The translations under genes and the position numbers were made by a program. A DNA stretch of 63,871 nucleotides, the filler included, from Basidiobolus ranarum (lineage: Eukaryota): assembly GCA_040143965.1 (NCBI GenBank). It is 44 parts of 44 records of this genome, joined end to end, with 100 filler letters (N's around TTAATTAATTAA, not from the genome) between each part and the next. Parts side by side here need not be neighbours in the genome. Positions count along the whole stretch, not along the records: positions 39,341 to 40,693 come from JASJQH010012318.1; 43 more parts are not named here. The stretch is one strand, 5' to 3'. Every line of letters begins with the position of its first letter. Position 1 is the stretch's first letter. The notes under the pieces are model-generated. The model searched no databases and was not told the origin of the DNA. It saw nothing but the letters and a program-made list of their open reading frames with translations. This document shows, piece by piece, positions 1 to 53,743 of this stretch.

Positions 1-379
1 GGGCTTTGATGGAGATATTGACACAAACTTGTGTTGGATATGAGCTAAACCTTGGGTATAAAGAACTATGTAAAATATGCAGGAGAATACATCAAAGAAA
101 CTAGGGATTTTGAAGGTGACAAATTAGCATTCAAGTGGTAATTGTGTAAAATTTGAGTTAAGTTTTTTGCACATGTGTTGATCCACAGTTCTCTGAGACT
201 TTAGCCTATCATTTGCAACTATTTTGTGAGATCTTGAAATTTCACTCCTGAAACTGAAAAAATTGATTAAAATCAAATATAACTTGACAATTTTATGACG
301 GTAAGTAAACGGTCAATCCCCAGTGGATTAAAATTGTGATGGTTTTCCTATGATAACAATCCTCAAATTTCTGTTAGGG
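1..379. mobile_element. CMC/CACTA-like DNA transposon end A (ORF2-side terminus, ...AAATTTCTGTTAGGG)
   Basis: Homologous segment ends sharply at TGTTAGGG, or a close variant, at 379, 1879, 4978, 15047, 45802, 49751, 57197 and 60170 with unrelated flanks; inverted degenerate copy at about 38945-39240. Confidence 0.85.
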
Positions 380-1362
380 ATTATAGCTACCAATAATGAT
401 GAAGCTCTCAGGACACAAAAGAGATCTATCAGTCTAATTCAAGATGAGCAAATGCAGTGAACTTATGTATTTTTTAGGTCTGCAGATCTGTACAGATAAA
501 TTGGCAAATCTATTGCTCTAAATCAATGTAAATACATATCAGACATTCTCAGGCATTACAAAATGGAGAATTGAAAGCCATTAGCAACTCCCATGGCTCC
601 AGGTGTGAAACTAGTCAAAAATCCCATGAAAAATGATGAAAATTTGCCAATTATGACTCAAATATATCATCTGAAAGCCCTGAGTTCCCTTATCAATATA
701 TGATTGGTAGTTTGATCTATGCTATGACTGGAACCCAACCAGATATCTCTTTTGCAGTGGGAGTAGTCAGCTAACATGTGCAAAACCCAGGATCTGAGCA
801 TTATGCAGCGGTTAAGGGGATTTTCAGATATTTGAAGAGGACAATTGATCTGGGATTAAGATACACATATTCTTATGAGAATAAGGATCTAACTGGTTTT
901 AGTAATGCATATTGGCAATGTGATATTGAGGACAAAAGATCTATCACTGGATATACCTTTCTGTATAGTGAAGCAGCCATATCTTGGAGTAGCAAGAAGC
1001 ACCCACCATAGCACTTTCAACAACTGAAGCAGAATACATGGCAGCATTACATACAACAAAGGAGGCTATGCGGTTAAGGAAACTGCTCAAAGACTTGGGC
1101 ATTATTCAAAGTTCACCCACCATAAATTTCAAGGATAAACACAGTTGTATTACTTTAGCTAAAAATCCCAAATTTCATGCTAGAAGTAAGCACATTAATT
1201 ATTCAACATCACTTTGTTAGGGAAGCTATTGAATATAAGCACATCCAACTGTGGTACTGTCCAACTGAGGACATGATTGCTGACATCCTTACCAAACCAT
1301 TACCCAAGCCAAAATTTGAAGAATTAAGATTTAAGTTAGGTTTAAGATATATGAATATTTAG
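380..1362 (+). pseudogene. Ty1/copia RT C-terminus and RNase H, frameshifted
   Basis: Motifs SITGYTF..SWSSKK, KNPKFHARSKH, HHFVRE, EDMIADILTKPL. Confidence 0.93.
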
Positions 1363-2924: not shown

Positions 2925-4286
2925 TGTGTTTGGCAGTTCTTGCCTCTTCAACCATGGTAGAAGCTTCATCCCCTTTGACTGGCCATGGCCATGGTCACAT
3001 GGCAGTACATGTTGGAGCAAGTCATCTACCTTGTGGTTTGTGTTTGGTGGTTATTGCTTCTTCAACCACAGTGGAAGCTTCATCTTTTTTGACTGGCCAT
3101 TGCATGGTTGCATTCCTGTACATGTTGGAGCAAGTTATCTACCTTGAGGCTCATGTTTGGCAGTTCTTGCCTCTTCAGCCATGGTAGAAACTTCATCTCT
3201 TTCAACTAGTTGCTGTAACCTCTGGTGCAAGGTGGAATGCATTGAGGCATATTGTCTGCCTTGATGTTTGCGTTTGACTGTTGTGGCTTCTTCAAGCTCA
3301 GTAAGAGCTTCACTATCTCTCTCAAACACCTGTTGTCTTGGTCTTGTGAGGGTATGTGTTGTAACTGATTGCTGTCTCAGTAGATTGCCCTCAGGTGTCA
3401 GATCTTCATCCAACAAGGGGAAGGTTCAATAATTCTTGTGGTTGGCCTTTGTTGCTGTCACTTGGTAATACACATTAAACTGGTATGTCTTTCTGGTGGC
3501 ATGCTCCTTGGAGCTGACTCTTCTCCAGATGTAAAAAGCTCACTGATTGGTTTGGTTGAATCAGGTAAATGATGCACTATGATGCATGAGAATGCGGGCC
3601 ATCCTCTTTCTGGTTCTTCAACAAAAATGGGAGAAACATCATGGACTCTTCCAAGCTGGCATTGCTGTCAATGTGTACTACTAGCTGATGAACCAACTTG
3701 TTAGGCTCTTGGCCTTGTTGGAGGTGTTACCTCAATTCTAGTGGTGAGTTGTTTAGATTCTTCTCATGAAATAAATTCCTTGTCAGGAGTCTCTTCAATT
3801 TGGAATGATCTGATACATCTCTGCAGCAGTCTAGAATGCTCCAATTCACCTTTGGTAATATCTTCTGATTCATTAAATTGTTTTGCTTTTCTCTTTGCAC
3901 CTCTGTTGAATACTCTTGCCTTAGTGTCCTGAAATGTTGTTTTGAACTCTGTAACCTCAATTGACAGTTGCTGCAAAGTCTCCTTGAGTAGTGGTGGATA
4001 TCTATTTAGAACATCTTTTGTCTCTAAAGTTGAGGCCGCAAAGGTTGCTTCTGGTCCATACAAGCAAAAATGCAATTGGAATTGTGTCTTTGCGGACTCA
4101 AAATTAAAATTCCTATTTCTCAATTCACTCTTTCTATCCTCATGAGTCTTGTTGTATACTTTCTTGCAGACATCTGAAGGCATGAATATATAGTAGTCTC
4201 TCCAAAGCAGAGTCAAAAGTTGCTTCCACTTTTGTCTAATGCCCCCTTCCCCAGCTTCTGTCAAGCTTATCAATAACTCCCATATA
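2925..4286 (-). pseudogene. Accessory ORF of PHIS/Harbinger-like transposon (decayed, function unknown)
   Basis: LTEAGEGGIRQKWKQLLTLLW is shared with 34981-35830, which in turn matches 5848-6120, the segment divergent from the DDE transposase. Confidence 0.65.
2927..3315. repeat. Degenerate tandem repeat, unit about 114 bp, about 3.4 copies, inside the PHIS accessory ORF
   Basis: Unit starts TGTTTGGCAGTTCTTGCCTCTTCA, or variants, at 2927, 3041, 3154 and 3271. Confidence 0.8.
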
Positions 4287-4978: not shown

Positions 4979-5375
4979 TACAATGTTGCTACACAGGCCA
5001 TGACAAGTAATAATACCACAATATTGCAATTAATGCAGTGTTTGGAAGCAATTACCCAACAGTTAGAGAGTCACTCAACAATAATACAAGACCTTCAGAA
5101 TACTGTATCTGAGCTACAGCAACATGATGCTCCCTCTGTCCAATCTCATATGGGATTTCAATCAATCCCACACCATATATATGAATGTCACCATCACAAG
5201 CTAGCAGAGCAGAATATTTGTTGGACCATTAAGCCTACACAACAACCCAAAATTGCTTGTGCACAAGAAAGTAGATATCTCATAGGAAAACTGGCAAACG
5301 AAAAGACTCTGAATGTCAGAGCTGCCATCACTTGCTCTGATGATGAGTGGTTTGACATTTGGGAAACTGTGCGGA
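4979..5375 (+). pseudogene. CMC/CACTA element ORF2 fragment (coiled-coil-like region)
   Basis: QAMTSNNTTILQLMQ overlaps the end of the 4387-4813 fragment. Confidence 0.65.
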
Positions 5376-5847
5376 ATCTTGCCTTTCTGTTAGATTCCTT
5401 ATTCAGTATATTATGTTTAACCTTGCAATATCTATATAAGCTCTGTGTTCTTCTTGATCGGACTGAGGTCTGATCAAAACCATAGTAAAAATAAAATTTA
5501 TTTGATCTGGATCAGATCCACCCTCCAAAAAAGCAAAACCATCAGAGAACCATCACAATATTTGTGGCTTGCATTCTGCCAGGGATTTTGATGGTGTGAT
5601 AGTGCTTTTGTGATGGTATTTTGACAGTATTCATGCATGTTTAAATATTTTTCCTCAAATTTGGCCTGTCTTGTTCAATATCTGGCCATTTTGGCAAAAA
5701 TCTAATTTTTAAATGGCAAATAGCTTGGTTTACTGCTGTAGGAATTTNNNNNNNNNNNNNNNNNNNNNNNNNNNNNNNNNNNNNNNNNNNNTTAATTAAT
5801 TAANNNNNNNNNNNNNNNNNNNNNNNNNNNNNNNNNNNNNNNNNNNN

Positions 5848-22080: not shown

Positions 22081-23488
22081 TTATGAAAAATGCAAGTGAA
22101 ATCCCATAGAGAAATGGACAAAAAGTTCACTTGATCCTAACTTACCAATGGAATCCCATCACAATTAGGGATGAAAAGCAATTGCTAACTATGGAAAATC
22201 AACTTGCAGCTTACTCAATTTATTACTCTACCAGATAGTCCATCTATCATTGCCTAAAAATCTTTGTAAAAACTTCTCACTTAAAATAGGATGATCTTCA
22301 CAATGCACAATGAAATACCTTGGTTTTTATTCATTATATTCTGACCAGATTTAGCTGCACTTTGATATTACATTGAGTTATGGTGTGAAGAGTAATATCT
22401 CTCTTGTTACATTGTATTGGCAGCTTGAAAAGAATCCACCATTCAATCAGCCTACACCCACTGAGGTTTTTTTCCAAAGTAGAGGGAATCCTCCATTAAT
22501 GTGCTATCATTGATTTAGTTTCTCCTGAAAGTTTTGTTCAAAAGATGTACTTGGTGTAAGTCTGGCCAGTTGCTGCAAAAAATCAAAACATACCAATTTA
22601 ACTTACTGAACTACTCAGGAAGTGAAATACTTCTCAATAGCTTCTGAGTATTTATTGCTGTTTTAAAAGTTGGTACCATTGATGGTTGCTTTTGATTTAC
22701 TGGCAGTTGCACCACAGTTATCAGCAGTAGTGTTAGTATCTACACTTTCAAAAACTGAGAGTTCAAGCTGATCACTGGCAACTATGACTTAGCTTCTGAT
22801 TTTTGAAGAAAGGCCATATACCCCAACTAGACAGCAAAAGAAACCATATCCAACACAGTGAAATATAAGATAACTAGATACTAAGCTATATATAAAGATA
22901 TAGGTGTTTAGCCAATGCTAATTTCAACAAAGATAATATCCATTATCAAATATTGGAGTTAACTCAAAATATTTACACCAACTTAGAAGTTCTCAGATAC
23001 ATAGATTTTTCAGGCTTGTGCTAGAGGCCCCAAACCTTACACATATGTTCCTGAAACCTCTTTCAATACATTTTACATTTTAGTCAGTTGATATTGTGAT
23101 TAACGTATAAATGTCAACTTGCAACTCAATAAATCTGTTGGAGGATCTTGACATAATGAGGGTAGACTTTGAGTATTTGAAGCAACTTATGATAGTGTGT
23201 TTTAGTTAGTTTATTCTTAAGAGTATATGGTGACTTATATAGTNNNNNNNNNNNNNNNNNNNNNNNNNNNNNNNNNNNNNNNNNNNNTTAATTAATTAAN
23301 NNNNNNNNNNNNNNNNNNNNNNNNNNNNNNNNNNNNNNNNNNNATTCAGGAGAATATATCAAAGAGACTAGGGATTTTGAAGGTGACAAATTAGCGTTCA
23401 AGTGGTAATTGTGTAAAATTTGAGTTACATTTTTTGCACATGTGTTGATCCATACTTCTCTGAGATTGTAGCCAATCAGGCGCAACTA

Positions 23489-24904: not shown

Positions 24905-26154
24905 GTAATGAATATGGCTGTGAGTAAACTCCATTGATTTGACAAAATCTGCAGCAAGATAGTGCATTGTGCACACCAAAACTTCCAAGTTTACTGATAG
25001 CAGGAGCCTCACCAATTCATTCAATGATATTAGCTTTAACAATATATTCACCCATCTGAACCCCATTGGATAACCATTTAAATTCCACAATCAAAGGATC
25101 CAAGAAGCTATCTACAAGCACTGGTGAGTTAGGTCCAGATTTGATGGATAGTATCAAAATATTATGACTCTTACACCATTCAGAAGGAGGAAGATTTAAG
25201 TTGATTATAATTATTGGCCAGCAAGCCTTTCCAATGGTATATTTGTTTAGTGAGATACCATCCAGTGCCAATGCAAATGCATGATCATACATGTTCTCAA
25301 AGAAACCTTCACTTTTCAGATTCTGGTAGTGATATTCATCAGGTATATTGGTAGTACCATCAGCTTTACAGTGAGTACTTTGGTATTGGATCAAAGATCT
25401 ATATTTGGGTGATTTCATCAAAACTTTTAAATGTTGAATTAATGATATTTAGCAAAATATGCAAAATATTTACTTGATTCAGTGATTGCCAATTGTGTGC
25501 AAACATACATGACTTCTGGTTGTTCAGATCACCAGAGAAAGCCAAACAACCACTAGGACATGACAGTAGTTTAGTTACTGAAGGATTATAAGTCATACAA
25601 TTGACAAGTGTTTTCCACTTGTACCAGATCTGTGGCAAGCACAAGTTGCCAATTGACTGCAGTAAAAGTGTAAGATAAACAATGAACACCTGGTTGCAAA
25701 GTTTGGATTGAACTCTCCACTCCTCAATAATCAAAGCTACTTCCTTGAGAGTAAGTGTTATGAGTGGACTAATGTTTGCCAATAACACAGAGTCTGTAAT
25801 ATAACTGTCATCTTCTTCTTCAGCTTCTGATAAACTAGTGTTGGTAATGGAATAACCTTGGTCAACATCTGGCAGCAAGTCTTCAAAGTTGTCTGGACTT
25901 ACTGGTTTGACCAAATTTGCATTTTGACCTATAACATTCTGATCATATAACTGTGGTAACTTCTTGGTAACTTGACTTTTGCCAGTGTTACCAAAACTTT
26001 CATGCAAACTACAGTCAGTGGACTCAATGGGCAAAATTAAAGTTGATTTAGTGCACTTATTACTGTTGTTATGCACCAGGCTTTGTGCAGCTGGTGGTTT
26101 TGTACAGTGACCATGCTTGCGCTTATTTTTTCTATGAAGCCTTTGGCTTTCATT
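24905..26154 (-). pseudogene. CMC/CACTA transposase (Transposase_21/Tnp2-like core)
   Basis: CPSGCLAF; AFALALDG..CWPIIIINLNLPP..GPNSPVLVDSFLDPLIVEF. Confidence 0.9.
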
Positions 26155-34282: not shown

Positions 34283-34880
34283 CTAGCAATTACGAGGGTT
34301 GCGAGCACACCACAATGGTTGTAAAGGAACAGCTCCAATACCACGATCAACTAAGCGAGCTCTTTGTTCGTTGATACGAGGGAAGACATCACCAGTCTTG
34401 CGAATGGAGCCATCAGCTAGTTTGATGTCAGACCACAACACTTCAGCAGCAGCTGAACCACGAGGCCACAAGACGCTATCGATGTTGATACCATCAATCT
34501 GCTCAGCCCAGAGTCCGACTTCACCACCAAGGACAAGTTTACCTTCTTCCTTGGTCATGTTGGCAGTGAGATCATAGTTGTAAACAATTTGCCAGCTCTT
34601 GTAAGGATCACACCATGAGTTACCTTGGCTGTCACTGATCCAAGCTCCACGACCACAGTCGAGATACCATCTCTCGTAGCTGGTAGCAATCACACGATGT
34701 CCAGCACGGACTACCTTCAAGGCATCAGCAGCACCGAGCCATACGTGGATAGCAACATCCTTGCCCATGGGGACATGGTGACTGGTCAAAGCCTCTTGCC
34801 AGGTGATGGGAGTCTTCTTGTTTTCACGAATCCACTTGTGACTCTTGAGAATGAACTCTTCAAGAAGAATGTCCAGGGTG
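34283..34880 (-). CDS. GH20 beta-N-acetylhexosaminidase, C-terminus
   Basis: WYLDCGRG..SWCDPYKSWQ..VLGGEVGLWAEQID..LWPRGSAAAEVLWS..PLQPLWC. Confidence 0.95.
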
Positions 34881-36519: not shown

Positions 36520-37590
36520 GATATTTGACTAAGTAATGTTAACTAGCTTATATGTGATATGTGAAATAGTTAGGTGTATAAAGATAGAGATAATAAATAT
36601 GATAAAGACAATAAACTTCAACAGGAAGTGGTCAGGAGAATTAGAGAAACTGGTGGTTTTACTTATTGATATATTGAGTTGAAAGTTGATATTATTAGTT
36701 TTGGCAAGATGTGAAGAATCAACATGTACAATCTGATCAGGAAGCTCACAGGAACACATGCAAAAGTTTGGGGCTTTTAGTACAAGTTTGAAGAAATATA
36801 TTTATGTGAGAATTTCCAAGTTAGTGTTCATATTCTAAGTATGTTCCAATCACTAACAATGGGCAATATCTGTGGAAATGATCATTGACTAAACACCTAT
36901 ACAGTTATATATGGCTTAGTACCTAGTTATCTTTTATTTCCCCAAGATATTACCTACTATTCTCAATTAGAATTTGCTTAAAATATTGACACCAACTTGG
37001 AAGTACTTGAATATATTTATTAATCAAAGTTTTGCTAGAAGCCCCATACTTTGCAAACATGTTACTGGGACCTTCCTGAATACATTTGATCACTAATTCA
37101 TAGTCACTATTCTTGTGGATGAAATGGAATGCCTTGGATTACCAATTACTGATCAGGATAGTATAGTAACATTCCTGAATATCCTGCCACACAAGTTTCA
37201 GAGCCTAGTAATGGCTCTAGAATGAAGAACTGAAAATTTAACCTTAACCATGTGTTTTGCAGACTCCTGGATGACAATTTATGCAAATTAGGATGCAGCC
37301 AAAAAATGAAGAAAATGCCTTACTAAGCTATGCAAAGCCCACCTATAAAGGTCAAAAGCACTTTGAAAAGCAATGCATTCTGTAATTACTGTAAAAGAAC
37401 TGACCAAGTAAGCAAATGTTGTTTTAAAAGAATTTTAAATGAAGTGAAACATACTGAATCTGGAAATGCAGTTACAAGAGAGCATCAGATGTGGTATATT
37501 GATTCAGGAGCCTTCCAACACTTCACAAATGAAAAATGTTAGTTTGCAGATTAGGAAGATATCTCAATTAGGAAGGTTGTCATTATATGT
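36520..37590. mobile_element. Nest of copia LTR fragments and decayed gag-protease
   Basis: LTR homologies; FCNYCK..WYIDSGA. Confidence 0.75.
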
Positions 37591-39340: not shown

Positions 39341-40291
39341 ATATACAATAGGATACTTTTCTCTTTTGTATGGTCTAGGGTTTTGGACTTTTTGAAACTT
39401 TTCCAGTTCACCGTTCTGGCAAGTAGGGCACAGACTTGAAGTTTTAAACTCGTCAAGGAGGTATAGCTGGAAGCCTTCTTTGACTATCATTTTCTCATTT
39501 TGATGGCTCTATTGGGCTCATGCTACTTTTCATTTCCAGCCGACCAGTTACCAAGTATTATTATAGTATTATTTCCAGACTTATCTCAAAGATACTTGGC
39601 AAGCCATTTGTCTGATTGTAGTTGATTAATGGAACTTGAGAGCTTCATTTTTCTAAAAGGTAACAAACTGCTGGTCTGCCAGACAATCTTTATTTGAGAA
39701 CTATGCTTTCATAACTGGAGTAGCTTTGGTTTTTTCTTGAAGATACTTGGCAAACTTGTTGAAATTAGCATTGCCTAAACACCTATATAGTCATATATAG
39801 CTTAGTACTTAGTTATCTTATATTGAGCTAAGATATTACCCATTATTCTCATGAGGAATTTACTTAGACTATTGACATCAACTTAGAAGTTTGAAGATAT
39901 ATAGAATTTGATAACTTGTGCTAGAAGCCCCAAACTTTGCGCACATGTTCCTGGGACCTTCCTTAACATATTCTACCTGTTAGTCTGTTTACATCTTGAC
40001 AAATCTACAAATGTCAACTTTCTACTCAATAAATCAATATATGAAAACCACCGGTTTCTCTAATTCCCCAAACCACTTCCAACAGGCTCCCAAATACTTT
40101 AACAAAACTTTTCTTTGTTGGCAGTTAAAGATTTAAAATGTGATAGGGAGCACTCATCTCCGATGACTTGGTGTGTCTACAAGTTCTCTCTGAGCTTCCT
40201 GAATTTTCTGTATTTTGCTTCAATTGCTTTTTGGTTGCTTGTATATAAGTAAAACATTGTGTTTTTGGCAATCCTTTCTTGGGGTATACAG
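39341..40291 (-). pseudogene. Fanzor1 (TnpB-like RuvC RNA-guided nuclease) pseudogene, interrupted by a solo LTR
   Basis: Manual translation across stops and frameshifts gives YTSNQKAIEAKYRKFRKLRE...KFAKYLQEK...LPFRKMKLSS.INQLQSD...IILGNWSA...HEP.R...MIVKEGFQLYLLDEFKTSSLCPTC...NPRPYKR. Confidence 0.88.
39757..40104 (+). mobile_element. Copia solo LTR (348 bp) with 5-bp TSD AAACT
   Basis: TGTTGAAA...TTTAACA flanked by AAACT at 39752-39756 and 40105-40109. Confidence 0.95.
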
Positions 40292-40693
40292 TGATGAAAT
40301 TAGCAGAGCCTAAGCATTTATATAGCCATATATACCCTAGTATTTAGTTATTCCATATTTTACCAAGACATCACCCACTACTCTCAATCCAAATTTACTT
40401 GGAATATTTTTACTAACTTGGAATTTTTCAGATATATATATTTTTCAAACTTGTGCTAGATGTTTAAGAATTTGGGAGCCTATTGGAAGTGGTTTAGAGA
40501 ATTAGAGGAATTGGTGGTTTTTGTTGAAATTAGCATTGCCTAAACACCTATATAGTCATATATAGCTTAGTACTTAGTTATCTTATAATTCACTAAGATA
40601 TTATCAATTATTCTCAATCAGAATTTACTTTGAATATTTTTACCAACTTAGAAGTTCTCAGATATATAGATTTTTCAAACTTGTGCTAGAAGC
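40292..40693. mobile_element. Nested copia LTR fragments
   Basis: Homology to the 39757 LTR starting at 40292 and about 40521. Confidence 0.8.
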
Positions 40694-52395: not shown

Positions 52396-53743
52396 CCTGG
52401 AAAGAGCAGCCAAGTCAATAACATCTGAGTGGCTGATACACACTAAAGTGGCCCCATTCAGAAGTGCGCCCCAAACTTCGAAAGTGGCAGCATCGAAGGA
52501 GGTACTAGCAATATGAGCAATCTTGTCACTCTCTTGGATATTGATATACGTTGTATTTTTTACCAGACGAACCACGGATCGGTGTTCTACTAAGACTCCC
52601 TTGGGAGTTCCTGTTGAACCAGATGTATAGATAGTGTAAGCTAGATTCGAAGATGCTGGGCGTCTGGAAACCAATTCTTCCGACAATTCCATGATAGACG
52701 AGATATTTTCATCCAAGCTGATGATATTATAATCTCCTATTGGTATTGCGAACACAGTTGATTTCTGGCATATTACGATATCAGACTTTGTATCTTCCAA
52801 GATGAATCGCAACCTATCTGCAGGGTACTGAGGGTCCAATGGAATATATCCTCCACCAGCTTTGAGTACAGCCAAAAGAGCTACTATCATAAAGGGTGAG
52901 CGCTCCATGCATATAGCAACGGAAGACTCTAGATTGACGCCGAGAGTAACAAGGTAAGAAGCCAACTTATTTGACATTTGATGCAGCTCAAGGTAAGTGA
53001 GCTGTTCATCATTATGGATTACACCGACGGCATCTGGTGTATTGCGAACTTGATGCTCGAAGATGTCGACAATCGAACTATTGCGGGGATAGTCAGTAGC
53101 AGTCATATTCATCGTCACTAGTAGATTCTCACGTTCCATGTGATCTACAAGTTGCAAGGTCCCTATGGCCTGGTCGGGCTTTTCAACAGCAACTCTCAGT
53201 ATTTTCCGCAAATCCGAAACCATTCTGAATATCGTGTCGGAGCTGAACAAATCGGTGCTGTAAATGAAATCGGCTTTCAATCCATCACCATTTCTCCAGA
53301 AATGTACTTCGAGATCGAATCTGGTAGCAATTTCTCCTGTCTTGAAAGGTGTAGCCGTAATATCATTGAACTTGAAGTTGTCGAATGAAGCATCTTGTAA
53401 AGCGAACATTACTTGAACCAAAGGATTTCTACTAAGATCACGTTCCGGTTGAAGTTCGGCTACGACTTGTTCGAACGGAATGTCTTGGTGGCTGTAGGCA
53501 CCTAAAGTAACATCCTTGACCCGTGCCAAAAGCTCGTTGAATGTTAGTTCATGATCCATTTTAACTCGGATTACTTGGGTGTTGACAAAGAAACCAATCA
53601 GCCCTTCAATTTCTTTGCGGTTACGATTTGCTATTGGAGAGCCAACAGCAATGTCATCTTGTCCTGTGTACTTGTAGAGGAGAATTTCAAAGGCTGCCAG
53701 CAAGGTCATAAATAAGGTAGAACCTTCATTCTTGCTCAATTCC
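52396..53743 (-). CDS. Non-ribosomal peptide synthetase fragment (condensation domain C-half and adenylation domain N-half)
   Basis: TLFMTLLAAF..GSPIANR..GLIGFFVNT..AYSHQDIPFE; LTYLEL; YTIYTSGSTGTPKGV; SFDAATFEVW; open across the whole contig. Confidence 0.97.

Follow-up and report, generated by a model that had tools for sequence, protein, structure and literature searches.

Genomic context and structure of the locus

The window, that is, the whole 63,871-nt stretch of DNA that was analysed, consists of 44 contig pieces of ~1.35 kb each with N44-TTAATTAATTAA-N44 linkers between them. The contig pieces are arranged by descending length, such that neighbours within the window do not reflect genomic context. 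The locus described here is located in the piece 39341–40693 (1,353 nt). It comprises two parts of a Fanzor1 relic on the minus strand, an LTR inserted between them, and further LTR-derived sequence that extends to the other end of the contig. Its features are as follows.

39341–39756, minus strand: Fanzor1 relic, downstream part, corresponding to residues ~343–483 of the Rhizopus protein P0003 (see below), with three in-frame stops and two frameshifts; the contig ends at 39341
39382–39371, minus strand: NPRP, in the downstream part of the relic
39454–39419, minus strand: RuvC-II/zinc-finger string DEFKTSSLCPTC, in the downstream part of the relic
39552–39541, minus strand: GNWS, in the downstream part of the relic
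39660–39643, minus strand: PFRKMK, in the downstream part of the relic
39752–39756: target-site duplication AAACT, left copy, identified from the sequence
39757–40104, plus strand: 348-nt solo LTR with TG..CA ends, oriented opposite to the relic and lacking an internal region, delimited from its blastn family
40105–40109: target-site duplication AAACT, right copy, identified from the sequence
40105–40291, minus strand: Fanzor1 relic, upstream part, corresponding to P0003 residues ~281–342, with one TAG (40179–40177)
40292–40693: LTR-derived sequence that cuts off the N-terminal ~280 codons and reaches the contig end
40292–40460, plus strand: LTR positions 1–169 at 75 % identity, part of the upstream LTR sequence
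40461–40521, inverted: LTR positions 288–348, part of the upstream LTR sequence
40522–40693, plus strand: LTR positions 1–172 at 87 % identity, part of the upstream LTR sequence

Other coding remnants are apparent elsewhere in the window. An NRPS fragment at 52396–53742 (minus strand) is open over 449 codons and matches the Condensation (E 5.5e-48) and AMP-binding (E 2.9e-52) domains. A Transposase_21 (tnp2, CACTA/EnSpm-type) transposase fragment is located at 25020–25448 (minus strand; E 9.6e-10), and copia- or gypsy-type pol fragments are found in many other contig pieces.

Reading frame of the relic

Read across its breaks, the minus strand of 39341–40291 yields ~205 codons, collinear with residues 280–483 of P0003, a 577-aa protein of Rhizopus arrhizus annotated as a hypothetical protein or a transposase. 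The first-pass annotation of this DNA had proposed a reading of ~200 aa on this strand, which agrees with the codon count, and all of the peptide strings that it gave are recovered by translation. The reading starts at 40290 and runs to 40105, is interrupted by the insert at 39757–40104, resumes at 39751 and runs off the contig at 39341. When 39757–40109 (353 nt) is left out, the minus-strand reading becomes continuous, as had been anticipated.

An uninterrupted reading frame is absent. Apart from the solo LTR within it and the truncation by LTR sequence at its upstream end, the relic contains four in-frame stops, namely TAG at 40179–40177, TAG at 39703–39701, TGA at 39588–39586 and TAG at 39525–39523. 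Stops had been indicated in the first-pass annotation, which was correct as to their presence but displayed three rather than the four counted here. The two frameshifts that it also claimed can be placed near 39671–39675 and near 39490; the second of these restores the frame and lies within a run of A. The longest open stretch in the relic is 71 codons, with the linker X included.

A 22-nt direct repeat is present inside the relic at 39581–39602 and 39732–39753, with 86 % identity between the copies. It was considered as a meaningful element and rejected; the two copies, which lie at separate points of the protein, each code for a peptide of the AKYL type, and the similarity is probably due to chance.

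Affiliation with the Fanzor1 family

Residues 3–205 of the X-bridged read-through match P0003 residues 280–483 with 63 % identity (E 5e-88). P0003 in turn matches the solved Fanzor1 proteins of Parasitella parasitica (9cf0; E 1.6e-140) and Spizellomyces punctatus (8gkh; E 3e-50), and in a metagenome scan one locus, on a contig here termed L002, was found to encode P0003 at 100 % identity. Searching the whole window with P0003 by tblastn matched a single place, in three collinear segments (E 1.6e-26, 3e-18 and 1.5e-16). No further Fanzor pieces were found among the 44 contig pieces by tblastn, blastn or tblastx with P0003 and L002.

Individual segments of the relic give the same affiliation. 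The 56-residue open piece at 39341–39508 (minus strand) matched 10 of 13 candidate proteins at E≤0.01. Its best matches are to Rhizopus arrhizus/delemar (76–80 % identity) and Basidiobolus ranarum (85 %), and all of its named matches are from Rhizopus or Basidiobolus, at 71–85 % identity. Searched directly against the PDB, two of the three window pieces matched solved structures (9cf0 at E 2.3e-13 and 7.6e-9, 8gkh at E 9e-5), and the most upstream piece, searched alone, had no PDB match. A profile built from 28 relatives retrieved at E≤1 solely the three solved Fanzor1 proteins, 9cf0 (1e-275), 8gkh (3e-99) and the Guillardia theta protein 9cer (6e-18); TnpB and Cas12 chains were not among its matches at this cut-off.

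Pfam searches with the three pieces returned PF07282 (Cas12f1-like TNB) alone, below threshold (E 0.014; 16 bits versus a cut-off of 26.3 bits). The relic shares this superfamily with prokaryotic TnpB and the TNB of Cas12f, and the sub-threshold match is the only Pfam signal; the relatives carry the precomputed label PF26935.1. A prokaryotic TnpB or a Fanzor2 identity was considered and rejected, as the named relatives are all of the fungal Fanzor1 type and the profile reaches no TnpB/Cas12 chain.

The assignment to Fanzor1, which the first-pass annotation had proposed, is thus borne out by the match to P0003 and by the matches of the pieces and of the profile to solved Fanzor1 proteins. Its expectation of related copies also holds, since the consensus of the relatives has a DPG upstream and a second Cys pair and WNRD downstream. 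The relic is a decayed, partial member of the published Fanzor1 family, and with a probability of about 0.93, judged by sequence comparison, 39341–40291 represents a pseudogene fragment of a Fanzor1 gene.

Catalytic layout

Retained in the contig is the middle third of the gene: the linker behind RuvC-I, the stretch reaching through the catalytic glutamate of RuvC-II, and, of the zinc-finger (TNB) domain, the first Cys pair. Of the 24 columns in this range with at least 90 % conservation across the family, 19 are retained in the relic, including G414 (the G of GNWS), D447, E448, C455, P456 and C458. The glutamate of the relic string LLDEFKTSS aligns with the invariant family E448 and with residue 935 of the 8gkh chain. 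The DPN of the S. punctatus protein SpuFz1 is found at 777–779 of that chain, which, using the published D383 and N385, both described as metal ligands (PMC10432273), gives a tag offset of 394. The relic glutamate therefore corresponds to SpuFz1 E541 (chain residue 935 minus the offset of 394). The WNRD aspartate, chain residue 1000, is SpuFz1 D606, and the catalytic residues described for SpuFz1 are E541 together with D383 and D606 (PMC10432273, PMC11423790).

One of the three catalytic residues is located within the contig. The place of the RuvC-I DPG, in which D272 and P273 are nearly invariant among relatives, would be 8 codons beyond the LTR boundary at 40291, and the rest of the contig in that direction is LTR sequence. 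At the other end, the contig includes the first CxxC (39430–39419), and the second Cys pair falls outside it. Its end corresponds to P0003 residue 483, ~40 residues before the RuvC-III RD motif, which places RuvC-III past the contig edge at 39341 as originally suggested. As far as the contig extends, the relic fits the motif of Bao and Jurka, D-X-[TS][TS]-X-X-C4-X-RD, for which an extra conserved G and E are described in Fanzor1 (PMC3627910). The element's 3′ end, with any omegaRNA, would likewise be situated past the contig edge, and an Rfam search of the relic's contig and of L002 gave no match.

Comparison with characterized and predicted Fanzor1 proteins

The R. arrhizus/delemar Fanzor1-type protein P0003 has 63–66 % protein identity and 78–81 % DNA identity to the relic over their collinear range. 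The two are alike in their GNWS, DEF-TSS and CP-C motifs. Unlike P0003, the relic is truncated at both ends, is interrupted by a solo LTR, stops and frameshifts, and is found in a Basidiobolus-like rather than a Mucorales genome. Four Fanzor1 families are given for Rhizopus oryzae in Table 1 of Bao and Jurka 2013 (PMC3627910).

A second Basidiobolus sequence, K7432_007251 of B. ranarum (181 aa; hereafter P0004), is 74–85 % identical to the relic over the 52–93 residues that they share. It consists of the C-terminal part only, lacks the WNRD stretch and has F instead of the second Cys of the first pair. In addition, Q replaces the conserved D (D447 of P0003) beside the retained catalytic E.

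Among solved proteins, PpFz1 of P. parasitica (PDB 9cf0–9cf3) is the best match to the window pieces and has the same RuvC-II/TNB string. It is described as active, with a 75-nt omegaRNA and a 5′-ATN TAM (Xu et al. 2024, PMC11423790). PpFz1 differs from both the relic and P0003 in carrying the FRI domain, a RuvC insertion of ~100 aa, between the YY-NE and LPFRKMK blocks. This domain is reported in PMC11423790 from Parasitella and Rhizopus only; it was present in three of the relatives examined here (two from Parasitella, one from Rhizopus microsporus) and is absent from P0003 and the relic. SpuFz1 (8gkh) aligns with the relic at the first CxxC as well as at the catalytic glutamate, yet is much more distant (E 9e-5 with a window piece). 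It is described as an intact copy with inverted repeats of 30 nt on either side (Saito et al. 2023, PMC10432273).

LTR insertion and upstream LTR sequence

The LTR family of the insert has blastn matches in 10 of the 44 contig pieces, with 4 full-length copies. All full-length copies other than the one in the relic (3 of 4), as well as 1 partial copy, lead into a common internal sequence, whereas the copy within the relic is followed by the duplicated AAACT and then by Fanzor sequence; the insert is therefore a solo LTR. This is as the first-pass annotation had described it, with TG..CA ends, a 5-nt AAACT duplication and no internal region. Fanzor homology ends at 40291/40292, the exact start of a further LTR copy, which belongs to the same family as the insert and is more diverged. 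An LTR at 40292 that displaces RuvC-I had likewise been proposed, and the stop of homology at precisely this position agrees with it.

Abutting LTRs of the same family in opposite orientation are evident in 4 contig pieces (at 17589; at 22929/22930; at 36871; and at 40460/40461 and 40521/40522). Two of the LTR–LTR junctions are located at about LTR position 74. The junctions could be the result of nested insertion into same-family LTRs, or they could be assembly chimeras.

The latter prospect bears on the relic as a whole, for it could be less broken than it appears if some of its breaks arose through sequencing error or misassembly, the assembly being highly fragmented. The contig pieces are merely ~1.35 kb long, the second frameshift (near 39490) falls in an A homopolymer where it could be an artefact, and the LTR-to-LTR junctions in several contigs could be chimeric. 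Against this, such errors do not typically produce four substitution-type stops in ~205 codons, nor an insertion bounded by a clean 5-nt duplication, and the B. ranarum relative P0004 is degenerate as well. A largely artefactual origin of the damage is accordingly given a low probability, and the relic is read as genuinely decayed.

Phylogenetic position and possible transfer between phyla

A maximum-likelihood tree was computed from 51 rows, with two very short rows excluded. In this tree the relic pairs with the degenerate B. ranarum sequence P0004 (support 99/96), and the pair is sister to the copies of Rhizopus arrhizus, R. delemar and R. stolonifer (98/96), within an assemblage of Mucorales sequences. 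Copies from Coemansia and Syncephalis are distant from the relic. Forcing the relic and P0004 together with the non-Mucorales rows was rejected (lnL difference 105.8; AU p 2e-7), in a comparison for which the grouping was picked after the tree had been seen.

At the DNA level, the relic is 78.4 % identical to the Fanzor1 gene of L002 over 431 nt and 80.7 % identical over 161 nt. Across 204 aligned codons, 42, 32 and 57 differences are found at codon positions 1, 2 and 3, respectively. The Nei–Gojobori estimates over 200 codons are a dS of 0.56, which is unsaturated, and a dN of 0.19, both for the Fanzor1 gene only. In protein identity to R. arrhizus, the relic (65 %) is on a par with the copies of Rhizopus microsporus (66–67 %).

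Basidiobolus and Rhizopus belong to different phyla (Basidiobolomycota and Mucoromycota, respectively). As to the host of the relic, a GH20 beta-hexosaminidase fragment at 34286–34879 (minus strand) of the window is 82–89 % identical to Basidiobolus proteins versus 39–46 % to those of Mucorales, and the host contigs are on this basis most likely Basidiobolus-like. An unsaturated dS, together with an identity equal to that between Rhizopus copies, fits vertical descent poorly, and Basidiobolus-like host contigs carry a relic that is nested inside Mucorales copies. These two observations suggest, with a modest balance of probability in favour, that a Fanzor1 element may have been transferred horizontally between the Rhizopus and Basidiobolus lineages, in either direction, long after the phyla split, and later decayed.

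The main alternative to horizontal transfer is contamination, that is, that the contig is Mucorales DNA. Every one of the closest full-length relatives comes from Rhizopus, and GC content does not separate the relic (36–37 %) from L002 (36.7 %) or from the window (36.4 %). However, identity to the Rhizopus-type gene at the DNA level is just 78–81 %, and the sister sequence in the tree comes from an independent B. ranarum assembly, with the support of 99/96 given above. The LTR family within the relic, moreover, is matched in 10 of the 44 contig pieces, although the pieces analysed gave no direct link between this family and a Basidiobolus host gene. Taken as an account of this contig, contamination is unlikely, and a relic resident in a Basidiobolus-like genome is preferred.

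The nearest intact gene and its surroundings

The Fanzor1 gene of contig L002 is the nearest intact relative for which DNA was found. An upstream exon, matched by longer relatives, is located at about 2220–2430 of L002, and the 577-aa P0003 as annotated seems to lack this exon. A GT..AG intron is present at 4039–4088 in the C-terminal part, just past the point at which the relic's contig ends.

Upstream of the gene, 1–903 (plus strand) of L002 holds the last 301 codons of a tyrosine recombinase gene, which shares the strand of the first Fanzor exon and lies 1.3 kb from it. Its Pfam match is weak (E 6e-4); searched alone against the PDB it had no match, and its family profile matches Cre at 4.6e-6. 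At the nearly invariant tyrosine position of the family, the L002 copy reads C. An association of Cryptons with Fanzor1 has been published (PMC10530073, PMC10711439), and a Crypton-like carrier was considered for the Fanzor1 gene of L002. It is not adopted here, since some relatives of the recombinase carry sub-threshold reverse-transcriptase or RNase H matches in the same protein. The recombinase may equally belong to a DIRS-like retroelement next door. A scan of viral contigs found no close relative; it returned one locus, at 5001–5393 of a 335,593-nt viral contig (L001), at 27 % identity.

The intron in L002, together with the published occurrence of introns in Fanzor genes (PMC10530073), raises the question whether the relic could be a live, intron-containing Fanzor1 gene whose breaks are introns or sites of read-through. 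Each stop, however, occupies a position that is coding in the relatives when the residues are aligned one by one; nothing additional separates the aligned blocks, and both TAG and TGA are represented among the stops. The 348-nt insert has TG..CA rather than GT..AG ends in the sense of the gene, and its repeat family recurs across the window (10 of the 44 contig pieces). With a longest open stretch of 71 codons, linker X included, a live gene is very improbable, and a pseudogene fragment is retained as the reading. That Fanzor-like motifs arose here by chance is dismissed, the weak Pfam match notwithstanding, given an E of 5e-88 across 205 collinear residues and 78 % DNA identity to an intact gene over 431 nt.

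Proposed history and ancestral activity

The arrangement of the locus suggests the following history. An LTR retrotransposon would have inserted into a Fanzor1 gene and would later have been reduced to a solo LTR. A further LTR insertion, or several nested ones, would have removed or displaced the upstream part, including the RuvC-I aspartate. Point mutations would then have brought in the four stops and two frameshifts. As it stands, the relic cannot make an active nuclease: its open stretches do not exceed 71 codons, it has one of three catalytic residues, and an LTR divides the gene.

By analogy with solved relatives, the ancestor of the relic would have associated with an omegaRNA encoded at the 3′ end of its own transposon. 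A short TAM next to the target matching the guide would probably have been recognised, and double-stranded DNA may have been cleaved by a RuvC site of the D-E-D type. Guidance by omegaRNA, use of a TAM and cutting of double-stranded DNA are described as demonstrated for the Fanzor1 proteins of Parasitella, Spizellomyces and Guillardia in the papers cited.

Significance

Fanzor1 is described as common in early-diverging fungi (PMC10432273), several species of which are included in Table 1 of PMC3627910. The literature search found no paper with both Fanzor and Basidiobolus, though supplementary tables may list such matches. Being dead and incomplete, the relic adds neither an enzyme nor a guide RNA or mechanism to those known, and is in itself of little interest. 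Its presence does show that the genome of a Basidiobolus-like fungus once hosted an active element carrying Fanzor1. The single aspect worth pursuing further is the cross-phylum similarity of the relic to Rhizopus copies. Transposon transfer between fungal phyla has been proposed in published papers in general terms only, and the relic represents a concrete, datable candidate for such a transfer.
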